A stretch of 64,000 nucleotides of DNA from an uncultured Methanosarcinaceae archaeon (GTDB lineage Archaea > Halobacteriota > Methanosarcinia > Methanosarcinales > Methanosarcinaceae): assembly GCA_963833425.1 (NCBI GenBank), contig CAWHXP010000016.1:34932-98931 (forward strand). Direction: 5' to 3'. The notes under the pieces are model-generated. The model had not been told where the DNA came from, did no database searches, and saw only the letters and a list, made by a program, of their open reading frames with translations. Every line of letters begins with the position of its first letter. Positions within the stretch are counted from its first letter, which is position 1. Shown one piece after another: positions 47,624 to 59,659 of this stretch. A program made the position numbers and the translations under genes.

Positions 47624-48778
47624 TTAATCATTCATTTTATTATAATCAGAGAGCAAATTCTGATAGAATGAATCATTTGGATTTTCTTTAATCAACTCAT
47701 CAAGTGCCTGCTTGTATATTGTCGTATCGATATGATCTTCGATTTTGACGTCTGTATTTATGTATCCGCTGTCTTTCATCATCTGATAGAATTTCACTAC
47801 ACCGTGTTTATTAGGATCAGGTGACGCATAGAAATAATTATTCCATGTTGCCTTGCGAATTACATCTTTATCAACATTGACGTATTTCTGGATATCGTCT
47901 ACAGAATTGTTCTGATTCTCGCTGAAAAATTTATATGCTTTTATCAGTCCCTTTTCAAACTTCACATATGTGGGTCTGTCTTTATTCAAAGTATCAGTCT
48001 TCAGTGCAATCCGGCAGCATGGGTGCTTATCAAAGTATTGATATGAGTGTGATGCCACAGACAATCCCTGCTGTTGAGCGAGTGTATCAAATGGAATCCA
48101 CACTATTCCACCATCGGCTTTTCCGGTCTTAACTGCCTCTAGCACTGCGTTAGGCGAGTTTAACTCCAGGAAAGTCACATCTTTCTTCCAGTCTATGCCT
48201 GCTTTCTTCAGGGAACCCCGGTAGATTAGATCCCCATTGGACATAGCAACTGTAGCAATTTTTTTATCCTTCCAGTTATTAAGATCCGCTAGTTCCTTTG
48301 CTTGCTCGGGCTTTGCCACCACAGACTGTCCCTCGCTCATTAGGCCGCCAATCATTGAGATAGCTGCTCCCTTTGCAATATATGTTGCTGGATTGGATGT
48401 TCCAGATCCTGTTGTATCGAGTTTATTGCCAAATAATGCGTTATAAGCTTCCGTGCCCGTTGTGAACTGGTACAGTTCTACATTTAGACCTTCTTTATTC
48501 CAGAAGCCCTCTTCTTTTGCTATAAAGATTAGAGCATCCCCATTTGTAGGTAGATATCCGTGCCTGATAGTCGTGACCCCAGAAGCTGAAGTATTTGCTC
48601 CCTGCGATATAGTTTCCTGTGAAACTCCTGCATTAGAAGAACCAATTGAAGTATTTGCTTCAAGCGAATTACGTGTATTTGAAGAGTTTAGTGCGCTCGA
48701 GTTTAGTATTGCACCTATTCCTATCAGCGCAACAAAAAGGATCAATATTCCAATTACATATTTGTTTTTTTTAGGCAT
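47624..48778 (-). CDS. ABC substrate-binding protein, sulfonate/nitrate/taurine (SsuA/TauA/NrtA-like)
   Basis: N-terminal TM anchor, Ser/Asn linker, GYLPT, IAKEEGFW..EGLNVEL, AVKTGKADG...WIPF, HPCC; RBS GGAGG. Confidence 0.92.
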   Translation of the reverse strand: MPKKNKYVIGILILFVALIGIGAILNSSALNSSNTRNSLEANTSIGSSNAGVSQETISQGANTSASGVTTIRHGYLPTNGDALIFIAKEEGFWNKEGLNVELYQFTTGTEAYNALFGNKLDTTGSGTSNPATYIAKGAAISMIGGLMSEGQSVVAKPEQAKELADLNNWKDKKIATVAMSNGDLIYRGSLKKAGIDWKKDVTFLELNSPNAVLEAVKTGKADGGIVWIPFDTLAQQQGLSVASHSYQYFDKHPCCRIALKTDTLNKDRPTYVKFEKGLIKAYKFFSENQNNSVDDIQKYVNVDKDVIRKATWNNYFYASPDPNKHGVVKFYQMMKDSGYINTDVKIEDHIDTTIYKQALDELIKENPNDSFYQNLLSDYNKMND

Positions 48779-48906
48779 AATTCCTCCAGTTACTTTTTTC
48801 GGCTAATGTCGAAAAACAATCGTTTGAGTATCCATATTGAAAATGTGGAATTTATAATCGATATTTAAGTAAAAATTACCTTTAACAACACGGAAACAGA
48901 TTTTGT

Positions 48907-49192
48907 GCAATTAACTTAAAACTGAAATGTTACTGCTAATAATTGCTTTATACTCAGCACATAAATCCCTTGTTTTCATACTTTATCATGTATTTTCGGT
49001 TGAATAAAGAGTAATAAAAATTGGATTCATTCTCATAAATATCCTATTATTAAGTCCTTTTTTGCCGCAATTAACTCAAAACTGAAATGTTACTGCTAAT
49101 AATTGCTTAATACTCAGCATATAAATCCCTTGTTTTCATACTTTTCATGTATCTTCGGTTGAATAAAGTGTAATAAAAATTGGATTCATTCT
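48907..49192. repeat. Direct repeat of ~127 bp (48907-49033 and 49067-49192) in the divergent promoter region
   Basis: GCAATTAACT.AAAACTGAAATGTTACTGC...TTGGATTCATTCT occurs twice, 160 bp apart, with only a few differences. Confidence 0.95.
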
Positions 49193-49446
49193 ATAAAGTT
49201 TCTTAAACTTATTCAAATACTAATGAAAATTGTATACCAATTTAGAATTATAAAAATAAATTTAAGATCAAATTAGCTACAAAATAGACAGGCTTCAGGC
49301 AATATTACCCCGAAATTATGTTTAGAGGCTTATATTGGTGTATAGCATGAACTATGAGTTTAATCGATATATGTATAAGTATGGGAAATTACTCGCAAAA
49401 ATTTCCATTCTGTGTGACATTAAACTGTTACAGGGAGATGAAAAAA

Positions 49447-50264
49447 ATGGCAACAATTGATTTAAAGAACATTTCGTTATCCTATGGCAATAATGGCACT
49501 AGTCATAAAGCACTCTCAAATATCAATCTGAGAATAAGAAATGGAGAATTTATCACTTTGATTGGTCCTTCTGGGTGTGGGAAAAGTACAATAATTGATG
49601 TTATCTCTGGTTTGCTTTCTCCTTCAGAAGGCATTGTTCTTTTAGATGGCGTCCAAGTTGAAGGACCTGGTACTGATCGTGGTACTGTATTTCAGGATTA
49701 CTCTCTCTTTCCTTGGATGACCACTTTTAAAAATGTTTGCTTTGCCATTGAGCATTCAAAAGAAGCTGGGACACACAAAGGTGTAGAGAAAATGGCACAA
49801 AAATTTCTTGACCTTGTAGGACTTGGAAAATTTAAGGATAAATATCCGCACACCCTTTCAGGTGGAATGCGACAGCGTGCTTCAATTGCCAGGATGTTTT
49901 CGATCGATCCTAAAGTCTTCCTTATGGATGAACCTTTTGGAGCTTTAGATTCACTTAACAGAATGTACATGCAGGATCTTCTTTTGCATCTATGGTCGAA
50001 GGAGAACATCACAAGACTGTCCTGTTTGTTACTCATGATGTGGATGAAGCACTTTTGCTTTCCGACAAAATCGCAGTCATGACCCCTTCTCCTGGGAGCA
50101 TAAAAGAAGTAGTTAATGTTCCATTCTCCAGGCCAAGAAATCGTAAAGATCTAAGTATTGACCCTAATTATCTTGCTCTAAAGTCTAACCTTTTATCAAT
50201 ATTATATGGTGAGATGGTAGAAGAGATCAAAAAGCAGGAAAAAGAACTGGAAGGGTATATATAA
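49447..50264 (+). pseudogene. ABC ATPase (SsuB/TauB/NrtD-like), single frameshift
   Basis: GPSGCGKST, VFQDYSLFPW, LSGGMRQR, LMDEPFGALD. The H-loop VLFVTHDVDEA is in another frame (shift at ~49995-50005). Confidence 0.9.
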
Positions 50265-58338: not shown

Positions 58339-59237
58339 TCACCAACCTCGTTCCTGAAGAGCTTCTTCTATGGGGATCATATCTACGCTGATGCCCTTCA
58401 TTCCGGAACCAATACCTGTTGATATCTCAGCAAGTCTTGCAGGGTTATCATAGTCATTTACACCTTCAACAATTGCTTTTGCTATCTTTTCAGGATTTTC
58501 GGCTTTGAAAATGCCTGAACCCACAAAAACTCCATCAGCTCCAAGGCGCATCATAAGAGCTGCATCCGCAGGGGTTGCAATTCCACCAGCTGCAAAATTA
58601 ACCACAGACAAGCGCTGCATCTTTGCTGTTTCGATCACGAGTTCTATCGGAGCTTCAATCTCCCTGGCAACCAGGATCAGTTCTTCTCTTGTCTTACCAG
58701 AAAGTGCACGTATTTCCCCCATAATCTGCTTCATATGCTTCACTGCTTGGCTGACATCACCTGTTCCAGCTTCTCCCTTGGTCCGGGGATCATGGCTGCC
58801 CCTTCGTTAATCCTTCTAAGGGCTTCTCCGAGATTTCTAGCTCCGCAGACAAAAGGCACTGTAAACTGTGTCTTGTCTATGTGGAAGAAAGGATCAGCTG
58901 GGGTCAGCACTTCGGATTCATCTACCATGTCAACACCAAGTGCCTCCAGAATTTCTGCTTCTACAAAATGCCCTATTCTGGCTTTTGCCATTACAGGGAT
59001 GGTAACAGTATCAATGATTTGTTGAATTATTTCAGGATTTGCCATTCGGGCAACTCCACCAGCTTTCCTGATATCTGCAGGAACAGCCTGAAGGGCCATA
59101 ACAGCAACCGCTCCGGCTTCTTCTGCGATTCTGGCTTGTTCAAGGGTTGTTACATCCATGATCACACCCCCTTTCTGCATCCTTGCAAAGCCCCGCTTGA
59201 TAAGTTCTGTCCCATGTCTTAATTTTTCAAAGTCCAT
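58339..59237 (-). pseudogene. pdxS: PLP synthase lyase subunit, frameshifted
   Basis: [43 protein letters not shown]. Two extra C in ATG-ATC-CC-CGG-ACC-AAG (~58785) break [11 protein letters not shown]. Confidence 0.93.
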
Positions 59238-59367
59238 GAATATAATCCTCTTTTTCAAAATTATTTGAAAAAAATTGATTCAGCAAATTTTATAATGATG
59301 GAGTGATGAAATAGTGCTCACCAAAAATAAAATGATTTCCTCATATTATTTTAACTAGAACTCATAG

Positions 59368-59580
59368 TTACACTTTTTCAAGAGCTTGTTCAAGATCTGA
59401 GATTATATCTTCGACATCCTCAATACCAATGGAAAGTCGTATGTAATCTGGCTTAACGCCTGTTGCCTCCTGTTCAGTTGGGGTTAGCTGCTGGTGTGTG
59501 GTAGTTGCGGGATGAATGACAAGACTTTTTGAGTCTCCTATGTTAGCAACATGTGAAAACAGCTTCAGATTATTGATAAT
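59368..59580 (-). pseudogene. metY: 3' fragment (70 aa) of O-acetylhomoserine sulfhydrylase
   Basis: [28 protein letters not shown]...[27 protein letters not shown]; the 5' part is absent. Confidence 0.92.
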
Positions 59581-59587
59581 ACCTCTA

Positions 59588-59659
59588 AGCTAAGACCCGG
59601 AATCGAACCGGGGTAAAATGGATCTGCAGTCCATTGCGTAGCCTTTCCGCCATCTCAGC
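59588..59659 (-). tRNA. tRNA-Cys(GCA)
   Basis: Acceptor stem GCTGAGA/TCTTAGC with U73, anticodon arm ATGGA-CTGCAGA-TCCAT (G37), T-loop GTTCGATT. Confidence 0.95.

Follow-up and report, generated by a model that had tools for sequence, protein, structure and literature searches.

What a methanogen gains from an intact set of nitrogenase-like genes, when most of the genes around them are broken, is the question raised by a 64,000-nucleotide stretch of DNA from an uncultured Methanosarcinaceae archaeon (GenBank assembly GCA_963833425.1, contig CAWHXP010000016.1, positions 34,932 to 98,931 of the forward strand; hereafter the window, with positions counted from its first letter). A sequence-only reading had singled out three genes of the window, H, D and K, as a candidate system similar to bacterial methylthio-alkane reductase (MAR; the Mar or MarHDK proteins) in a sulfur-scavenging neighbourhood. 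We found that D is a member of a separate, tightly conserved, mainly methanogen-borne nitrogenase-like (Group IV) family that is distinct from Mar, and that this family is strongly linked to sulfur genes and NitT/TauT-type importers. It probably helps methanogens obtain sulfur. The three genes are as follows:

53868-55412 (-): D subunit gene, 514 amino acids (aa), intact (Pfam Oxidored_nitro, E 2e-67)
52505-53854 (-): K subunit gene, 449 aa, intact (Pfam Oxidored_nitro, E 6e-72)
55767-56666 (+): H subunit gene (Fe protein, ATP-dependent reductase), 299 aa, intact (Pfam Fer4_NifH, E 2e-99)

These Pfam assignments are far beyond chance, and about 3.8 kb of coding sequence runs with no internal stop in D, K or H and no frameshift. 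The K start codon (ATG) lies 13 nt past the D stop, and H is divergent from D across a 354 bp spacer. All of the P-cluster-type cysteines are present (C65, C91 and C159 in D; C24, C49 and C114 in K), each aligned to a Cys of Rhodospirillum rubrum MarD or MarK, and the H sequence has a P-loop and both cluster Cys motifs. The open reading frames (ORFs), the Pfam matches and the MarD/MarK alignments therefore agree with what had been seen from the letters, three uninterrupted subunits with six P-cluster-type Cys. No further Oxidored_nitro, NifB-like or NifX-like gene, and no nifEN, nifB or G subunit gene, was found in the window when all locus proteins were searched by tblastn and 59 window ORFs were scanned with Pfam; NifI/PII and AnfG, which were covered by those Pfam scans only, did not turn up either.

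When compared with the PDB, all three proteins gave MAR chains as their best matches. D matched 9fmg_A (MarD) with E 6e-71, NifD-type chains following at 5e-28 or weaker; K matched 9d9u_C (R. rubrum MarK) with E 6e-80 over residues 15-442, the next match being NifEN at 1e-30; and H matched 9fmg_D (MarH) with E 1.9e-119, against 4e-86 for the best NifH. PMC12552129 and PMC13474568 identify entries 9FMG and 9D9U as R. rubrum methylthio-alkane reductase. D was also modelled with AlphaFold2 (predicted local distance difference test, pLDDT, 85.4; predicted template modelling score, pTM, 0.89), and the model has a fold nearest to 9fmg_A (template modelling score, TM, 0.83/0.91 at 32% identity), with NifD chains at TM ~0.7 and 20-21% identity. 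Based on these best PDB matches and the fold match of D, H, D and K have their nearest characterised relative in Mar of R. rubrum, by sequence and, for D, by predicted fold.

For D and K, all curated NCBIfam models of nitrogenases, CfbCD and (bacterio)chlorophyll reductases are far under cutoff. D scores 133.7 bits with NifD (cutoff 653.6), 73.8 with VnfD (823), 53.3 with AnfD (874) and 48 with CfbD (268.4), K scores 84.7 with NifK (427.3), and the two together span 52-148 bits across the canonical nitrogenase models, with cutoffs of 427-874. H reaches 381.8 bits with nifH, slightly below the cutoff of 394.35, and 347.4 bits with CfbC (cutoff 402). We rejected a canonical nitrogenase (Nif/Vnf/Anf) because D and K score so far under these cutoffs and the window holds no nifEN, nifB or G gene. 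The coenzyme F430 enzyme CfbCD (Group IV-B) was set aside on its sub-cutoff CfbD and CfbC scores and on the presence of an adjacent K in 75 of the 76 family loci described below, and isethionate reductase (Isr, Group IV-F) on the presence of all six P-cluster Cys, IsrD being absent from our tree. The radical S-adenosylmethionine (SAM) genes near family loci are of NifB-like or 'variant_rSAM' types, whereas Isr expects a BciD-like IsrB.

How far the family extends was assessed with several searches. A word-indexed protein search with D gave 467 proteins at E ≤ 1e-10, with identities known for the best 120. These 120 are 67-93% identical to D, and the hosts named among them are Methanosarcina, Methanothrix, Methanoregula, Methanospirillum, Methanobacterium, Methanobrevibacter and Methanoperedenaceae, with a few Geobacteraceae, Negativicutes and Clostridia. 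An exhaustive search of 50%-identity representatives (labelled P) returned P0121 at 70% and P0122-P0124 at 47, 45 and 39%, all other full-length rows being at most 34% identical, and a search from the sister cluster P0122 led only to further members of the D family, with no names labelled IV-A to IV-F among them. Scanning species-representative genomes with the family yielded 76 loci (labelled L), which are the basis of all neighbourhood counts given here. Their hosts are nearly all methanogens, from six or more orders; the closest loci are from Methanosarcina (89-94% identity), with no near-identical locus among the 76, so that the window comes from a genome of Methanosarcina type outside that set. 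Strains in the scan with an intact cluster include Methanosarcina hadiensis TD41E1-1, Methanospirillum lacunae Ki8-1, Methanoculleus palmolei DSM 4273 and Methanobacterium sp. MBAC-LM. The spread is patchy, with two or three DK paralogues in many genomes and none found by the scan in others.

Our tree was anchored by bit scores against 9fmg_A, not by published labelled sequences: P0137, with 616 bits, is MarD-like, and P0145, P0129, P0124, P0134 and P0141, with 146-228 bits, are not. Relatives of P0144 include an Acetivibrio thermocellus protein (79% identity), and we took P0144 as IV-A-like because Table S1 of PMC13753814 assigns the A. thermocellus NflD to group A. Judged by eye, the NflD 5' ends given in that table resemble P0144 for group A and P0135 for group D, a weak comparison that enters none of our counts. 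With IQ-TREE (62 rows, LG+C20+F+G4, support by the Shimodaira-Hasegawa-like approximate likelihood ratio test, SH-aLRT), the D family (100) groups with P0122/P0123 (99) and then with P0124 (90). P0137 and P0144 stand together in a separate 15-row clade (99) that leaves the D family outside and is sister (96) to another large, unlabelled clade; a FastTree of 104 rows agrees. In an approximately unbiased (AU) test, forcing the D family together with the MarD-like rows, a group named after the tree had been seen, costs 102 log-likelihood units (p-AU 0.00015). Identities run the same way, D being 32% identical to P0137 and 31% to P0144 while P0137 and P0144 share 41%. D is not inside the Group IV-C Mar clade, and the expectation that D would group with R. 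rubrum-like MarD failed on both the tree and the AU test. In PMC13753814, physiologically relevant MAR activity is reported only for IV-C (15/20 systems) and for none of IV-A, D, E and F. As the D family is further from Mar than IV-A, which itself lacks relevant MAR activity in that source, MAR activity is not to be assumed for it. The strings 'Methano' and 'archaeon' do not occur in the supplements of that paper.

Comparing the cofactor ligands across 122 D family sequences, we found C65, C91, C159, C188, H205, C275 and H450 kept in all 122 and C433 in 120. C275 is the equivalent of MarD Cys270, with the numbering counted from the alignment. In MarD, Cys270 and a His anchor the [Fe8S9C] (mar2) cluster, the His being given as His429 (PMC12552129) or H428 (PMC13474568). 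It sits in an 'R-H' motif of the Mar and IV-A rows that hhalign places opposite R442-D443 of D, and the corresponding column of the D family holds E, D, L or N, not His. Just before that column the family has a 9-residue insert with C433, such that C433 lies 10 residues before the column and H450 seven after it; confidence of the D model is lowest in this C433/H450 loop (pLDDT 59-75). Either H450 or C433 could serve as the second cluster ligand, and by alignment the family appears to keep the P-type site and the Cys anchor while having its own arrangement of the second ligand. The earlier methylthio-alkane-reductase-like label thus holds in part: the system is non-canonical and nitrogenase-like with MarHDK as the nearest solved relative in both PDB and fold comparisons, but D lies outside the R. 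rubrum-type MarD clade and has no His ligand at the homologous column.

For the gene neighbourhoods, 892 non-overlapping ORFs from the 76 loci were clustered and the cluster representatives annotated, with loci of at least 14 kb (36 of the 76) treated as long. K directly follows D in 75 of 76 loci, the remaining one (L061) ending after D, and an H gene is found in 54 of 76, or 33 of the 36 long loci. Other recurrent genes are:

NMT1/SsuA-type binding protein: 17/76 loci
ATP-binding cassette (ABC) ATPase: 16/76 loci
MetY: 15/76 loci
CysK-type: 14/76 loci
ABC permease: 12/76 loci
NifX-like: 12/76 loci
small protein c8: 10/76 loci
ThiS: 9/76 loci
LarE-type PP-loop: 8/76 loci
CysRS: 7/76 loci
ThiI: 7/76 loci
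CysE-type: 7/76 loci
variant radical-SAM: 6/76 loci
ThiF: 5/76 loci
PdxS: 5/76 loci
MetX (MetX-CBS): 4/76 loci
cysteine desulfurase: 4/76 loci
NifB-like (325 bits, cutoff 344): 4/76 loci

At least one NitT/TauT-type ABC, Cys/Met (cysK, cysE, metY, metX) or sulfur-carrier (ThiS/ThiF/ThiI-type) gene is present in 31 of the 36 long loci, so that homologues are indeed tied to sulfur genes; a lack of this link had been named in advance as a finding that would speak against a sulfur role. Close to D, K or H (within 2 kb), 74 of 271 ORFs belong to these three groups, compared to 3 of 37 at 8-10 kb. One locus from a Methanotrichaceae metagenome-assembled genome (MAG), L002, has three DK sets, each with its own binding protein. 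More widely, L002, L012, L015, L022 and L026 carry two or three DK paralogues per locus, often each beside its own NMT1-type binding protein, and these paralogues are either family-type (60-68% to P0121) or P0123-like/P0126-like (46-56%). The Mar isozymes of Rhodopseudomonas palustris are reported to differ in substrate (10.64898/2026.08.20.746119), and DK paralogues with binding proteins of their own parallel these substrate-specialised isozymes.

Several further observations concern genes close to D, K and H. The small protein c8 (~95 aa) adjoins H in 10 of 76 loci (for example L009:3744-4031 (-)), is without a Pfam family and gave no lead in the ESM Atlas; it may serve the D family enzyme as an accessory or regulatory subunit. 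In the closest complete Methanosarcina locus, that of Methanosarcina hadiensis, the stretch between H and DK (L009:5835-9733) encodes an HgcA-like corrinoid protein (NF040863, 445 bits, cutoff 275) along with a 2x[4Fe-4S] ferredoxin and a CCG/dicluster protein, a mercury-methylation-type gene pair being inserted in this spacer. MtaA/CmuA-family methyltransferases (TIGR01463, 350 bits) lie near DK in Methanoculleus (L075:16387-17892 (-)) and in a Geobacteraceae MAG (L031, two copies), recalling the methyltransferase clusters described beside IV-A nitrogenase-like genes (PMC10418091).

The intactness of H, D and K amid decaying neighbours had been taken to suggest selection or very recent relaxation, and comparison with Methanosarcina-type orthologues bears out purifying selection, the neighbours being broken as described below. 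The ratio of nonsynonymous to synonymous substitution rates (dN/dS) is 0.03-0.055 for D (8 comparisons), 0.07-0.11 for K (6) and 0.07-0.09 for H (3); outside Methanosarcina-type sequences (L015, L070) dS is saturated. Along the window lineage, D has 14 nonsynonymous (N) and 40 synonymous (S) changes, against 48/191 in its relatives (p = 0.36). Purifying selection has acted on HDK over the long term, and K gives at most a slight sign that it was relaxed recently.

Flanking the three genes in the window are the following features, including those of an insertion sequence (IS) and of a pyridoxal 5'-phosphate (PLP) synthase:

46450-47174 (+): c24, a conserved Methanosarcina neighbour gene, frameshifted at an A8 run (tblastn pieces 46450-46911 and 46878-47174, 75-83% to L006/L009)
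47624-48778 (-): NitT/TauT-type binding protein (NMT1/SsuA-like), intact (Pfam NMT1_2, 1.7e-21)
49354-50264 (+): ABC ATPase (NtrCD/TauB/SaoA type), one frameshift near 49995-50001 (ORFs match TIGR01184 positions 1-169 and 162-230)
50264-51298 (+): ABC permease, intact (Pfam BPD_transp_1; 66% identical to the Methanoculleus L075 permease)
51565-51805 (+): H' remnant, approximately the first 80 residues of a second nifH-like gene, just downstream of the ABC operon on the same strand (tblastn)
51823-52213 (+): IS6/IS240-family transposase pieces, split over two overlapping frames between H' and the K 3' end (Pfam DDE_Tnp_IS240, 1.4e-4 and 3e-8)
56667-58338 (no strand): gene-less 1.7 kb, stop-to-stop ORFs all ≤64 aa
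58339-59258 (-): pdxS (PLP synthase lyase subunit), frameshift between 58788 and 58785 (NF003215 positions 4-150 and 165-298)
59371-59580 (-): metY (O-acetylhomoserine sulfhydrylase / homocysteine synthase) remnant, last 70 codons (residues 362-431 of the M. hadiensis protein, 93% identity)
59588-59659 (-): tRNA-Cys (GCA) (ARAGORN; Rfam tRNA 57.6 bits)
62237-63248 (-): ThiI (tRNA 4-thiouridine sulfurtransferase type) pseudogene, two in-frame stops and one frameshift (tblastn pieces in frames -3 and -1)
63614-63999 (-): HcyBio/methanogenesis-marker-16-type gene, 3' part with a frame change, running off the window (tblastn to L047/L058, frames -2 and -1)

NCBIfam, Pfam, tblastn and ARAGORN thereby recover the ABC importer, pdxS, metY remnant and tRNA-Cys that the sequence-only reading had described, and add to them the H' remnant, the IS pieces, the ThiI pseudogene and the marker-16-like gene. 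No Pfam family was found for c24, and the Rfam scan gave nothing besides the tRNA. The pieces of pdxS found by tblastn share 96-98% and 87% identity with Methanosarcina PdxS, MetY of M. hadiensis scores 669 bits with TIGR01326 (cutoff 495), and the marker-16 protein of L047 matches Pfam HcyBio (8e-95) and NCBIfam methan_mark_16 (531 bits). The c8 gene, which follows H in related Methanosarcina loci, is absent from the window (best E 0.045 when 10 c8 proteins were searched by tblastn). For ThiI, the in-frame stops led us to reject sequencing error, and decay of the neighbours is therefore at least partly real mutation; for the c24 break at the A8 run, sequencing error is possible.

Coding density of the window is very low, with non-overlapping ORFs of at least 70 aa covering 51%, and further IS fragments occur at 6479-6982 (IS240/IS6 DDE), 19951-20376 (DDE_Tnp_1) and 29824-30520 (DUF772 and DDE_Tnp_1). 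The region looks like one of heavy IS activity and gene decay. Many housekeeping genes are whole while the sulfur island decays, and NifU-like/IscU (PF01592; 13969-14346 (+)), ThiC (9987-11273 (+)) and QueC (26267-26941 (-)) are intact elsewhere in the window. tRNA genes are common sites of rearrangement and integration, and the metY breakpoint lies 8 nt from tRNA-Cys (59580-59588), with no integrase or repeat evidence found there.

The importer beside K had been proposed as the import partner of the intact HDK, a proposal that probably does not hold for this window. The binding protein has an N-terminal membrane anchor and a Ser/Asn/Thr-rich linker, is 50% identical to a Methanoculleus L075 protein, scores 103 bits with NCBIfam SsuA_fam (cutoff 163.5) and has only remote PDB matches, to NrtC, CmpC and NrtA (E ≥ 3.5e-7). 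For the ATPase (tblastn pieces 49447-50001 and 50001-50255), TauB gives 171 bits (cutoff 357), and for the permease TauC gives 94.9 (cutoff 342); the permease matches to NtrB, TauC and SaoP are all under cutoff, and nitrate- and Sao-type models score the importer similarly, also under cutoff. We thus rejected an assignment to SsuABC or TauABC, since the curated scores fall short and only membership of the NitT/TauT (NMT1_2) superfamily is established. Where the M. hadiensis locus (L009) has methyltransferase and ThrRS-editing genes between c24 and K, the window has the ABC operon, H' and the IS pieces, and the closest matches of the window ABC proteins come from Methanoculleus (50-72% identity). 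H' shares 80% identity with residues 12-57 of the H gene product encoded ahead of a 51%-identity D paralogue in L002, but just 55% with the orthologue of the intact H in M. hadiensis. Because the operon runs into H', the remnant of a different nifH paralogue, and is missing from the closest Methanosarcina loci, the importer is probably not a partner of the intact HDK; it probably belonged to a second H'D'K' set that was removed by an IS-mediated event. We infer that the importer-HDK adjacency in the window is secondary; the importer link at the family level is real.

Taking these results together, we would give an even chance to HDK being a nitrogenase-like reductase, powered by ATP and outside the Mar clade, that takes sulfur from an imported compound by a Mar-like mechanism. 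An H dimer (a [4Fe-4S] ATPase) would pass single electrons to a D2K2 core, which would hold a P-type cluster on the six conserved Cys and a NifB-derived, [8Fe-9S-C]-like cluster on Cys275 of D together with His450 or Cys433. This catalytic cluster would reductively cleave a sulfur compound that, in most genomes, would be imported by the NitT/TauT-type ABC importer; given these dedicated importers, the substrate is probably polar and not a freely diffusing volatile. The sulfide or small thiol released would go to CysK/CysE and MetY/MetX, or to carriers of the ThiS/ThiF/ThiI/LarE type. In this scheme we infer which types of cluster are held, what reaction takes place, which class of substrate is used and where the product goes, whereas gene integrity, ligand conservation, closest structure, phylogenetic position, neighbourhood and purifying selection are observed. 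NifB is described as universal in methanogens (10.1101/2023.10.20.563283). Since the surrounding island is largely pseudogenised, the system may be in the course of being lost from the window genome, or may rely on partners whose genes lie at other sites. A more specific proposal, which we offer as a possibility and hold to be doubtful, is that the family mines imported polar organosulfur compounds (such as sulfonates or functionalised thioethers) via a NifB-type cluster on Cys275 plus His450 or Cys433, that paralogues with their own binding proteins are tuned to different substrates, and that the carbon leaves as a small hydrocarbon or alcohol, making the family a minor Mcr-independent source of methane, ethane or ethylene.

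A number of observations weigh against a sulfur-scavenging reductase fed by an importer. Five of the 36 long loci (L041, L045, L050, L060 and L067) are without any ABC, Cys/Met or sulfur-carrier gene, and the three long Methanosarcina loci have no ABC importer within 10 kb. The neighbourhood link is controlled solely by its fall-off with distance and not by a genome-wide background, and the ABC ATPase cluster may mix in unrelated ABC systems, some of its members adjoining FtsX-type permeases. The binding protein of the window yields no ligand assignment from the NCBIfam or PDB searches. The importer ATPase, metY, pdxS, ThiI and the marker-16-like gene of the window are all broken, and K has 17 N and 17 S changes on the window lineage, as compared to 53/121 in relatives (Fisher p = 0.046).

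The state of the window would also fit a relic, in which the sulfur island is being lost and HDK is intact merely for want of time. c24, the ABC ATPase, H', the IS pieces, pdxS, the metY stub, ThiI and the marker-16-like gene are all broken, c8 is missing, little more than half of the window (51%) lies in non-overlapping ORFs of at least 70 aa, and N/S in K is raised in this lineage (p = 0.046). We still regard a relic as rather unlikely, as some 3.8 kb of coding sequence has escaped any stop or frameshift, the 14 N / 40 S changes of D resemble those of relatives (p = 0.36), and the 17/17 of K, set against a rough neutral expectation of ~3:1, falls below it. An alternative for the family as a whole is a biosynthetic reductase acting on an intermediate of a sulfur cofactor or thiolation pathway (coenzyme M or B, thiamine- or LarE-type) and fed by ThiS/ThiF/ThiI-type carriers. 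Sulfur-carrier genes (ThiS, ThiF, ThiI, LarE-type PP-loop, cysteine desulfurase) do occur in 17 of the 36 long loci, a marker-16/HcyBio-type gene adjoins ThiI in L047, L058 and the window, marker 16 has been named a coenzyme M synthase (PMC12068725), and the known methanogen relative, CfbCD, is biosynthetic. However, nutrient assimilation accounts better for importers that come with binding proteins of their own and for complete CysK-CysE-MetY-MetX sets, and a patchy family with two or three paralogues or none is unlike an essential cofactor pathway, making such a role unlikely in our view.

Still less probable, we believe, is a true methylthio-alkane reductase, which would convert dimethyl sulfide, ethyl methyl sulfide or 2-(methylthio)ethanol to methanethiol plus methane, ethane or ethylene, with MetY making methionine. 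All three subunits have MarHDK as their nearest solved structure, the Cys270 equivalent and six P-cluster Cys are kept, MetY is nearby in 15 of 76 loci with a remnant in the window, and the substrate-differing R. palustris isozymes (10.64898/2026.08.20.746119) indicate a functionally plastic family. Against this, the 32% identity of D to P0137 is below the 41% between P0137 and P0144, the D family is outside the P0137/P0144 clade (99 SH-aLRT) with joining rejected (p-AU 0.00015), the MarD His column is E, D, L or N, and a dedicated ABC importer would be unexpected for volatile thioethers; relevant MAR activity itself is reported only in IV-C (PMC13753814). A role in nitrogen metabolism, either weak Nfa-like N2 fixation or reduction of an imported nitrogen oxyanion, seems to us very improbable. 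The best NCBIfam matches of the ATPase and permease are nitrate-transporter models, the PDB relatives of the binding protein are NrtC, CmpC and NrtA, and H at 381.8 bits is just below the nifH cutoff of 394.35. Yet the transporter scores are all under curated cutoffs with SsuA, TauC and Sao models similar, NifD, VnfD and AnfD models reach 54-148 bits against cutoffs of 486-874, and sulfur genes dominate the loci, with no PII/NifI, glutamine synthetase or ammonium-transporter family among gene clusters present in at least 4 of the 76.

Nitrogenase-like enzymes are emerging as an anaerobic counterpart of oxygen-dependent organosulfur assimilation, while methanogens are usually thought to live on sulfide. 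To our knowledge, sulfur functions have so far been assigned only to the bacterial Mar (IV-C) and Isr (IV-F). PMC13474568 describes the other Group IV clades as the main open problem of the field. A full-text literature search found no paper that assigns a function to the methanogen DK family or links it to sulfur, though the family may already figure in trees or tables published by North et al. 2020 and Méheust et al. 2020. Abundant transcripts of 'nitrogenase-like' clusters in Methanothrix, Methanobacterium, Methanospirillum and Methanosarcina bins have been read as possible nitrogen fixation (PMC8674449). If HDK does release sulfur from imported compounds, many methanogens (from at least six orders) would be able to tap sulfur pools beyond sulfide, the universal methanogen NifB would gain a further client, and a variant cofactor site would become available for comparison with those of nitrogenase and Mar. 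Among the best 120 of the 467 D matches, family genes are routinely named 'nitrogenase molybdenum-iron protein', a label that inflates estimates of methanogen diazotrophy.

Set beside known systems, the window proteins share with NifHDK, VnfHDGK and AnfHDGK the fold and the P-cluster ligands, with H near the nifH cutoff, but D and K are far under cutoffs, the fold agrees only to TM ~0.7 at 20-21% identity, and nifEN, nifB and G are not found in the window. CfbCD (IV-B, coenzyme F430 reductive cyclase) is likewise a methanogen-native nitrogenase-like enzyme with an H-type reductase; however, CfbD works without K, whereas the window system has K, and D (48 bits) and H (347 bits) are under the Cfb cutoffs. 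The isethionate reductase IsrBHDK of Rhodobacter capsulatus (IV-F) is similar in being a nitrogenase-like enzyme of anaerobic sulfur assimilation encoded beside SsuABC/TauABC-type importers (PMC11423573), but IV-F is described as diverging at the P-cluster Cys (PMC13474568), of which the D family keeps all six. NfaBHDK (Group IV-A; Endomicrobium proavitum and Clostridia) is also a Group IV HDK system with P-cluster Cys, and in Firmicutes, IV-A genes have been described close to MetY/CysK and methyltransferase clusters (PMC10418091). The IV-A-like P0144, to which D is 31% identical, nevertheless groups with the MarD-like rows and not with the D family. With R. rubrum Mar, the system has in common the two-component architecture of H plus DK, the six P-cluster Cys and Cys270 equivalent, and an association with metY and cys genes. 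It differs from Mar in that D is only 32% identical and outside the MarD-like/IV-A-like clade, no marB or nifB adjoins it in the window, and the His column is not conserved, the D family having instead a 9-residue insert carrying C433 and an invariant H450; a NitT/TauT importer is often adjacent, and the hosts are mostly archaea.

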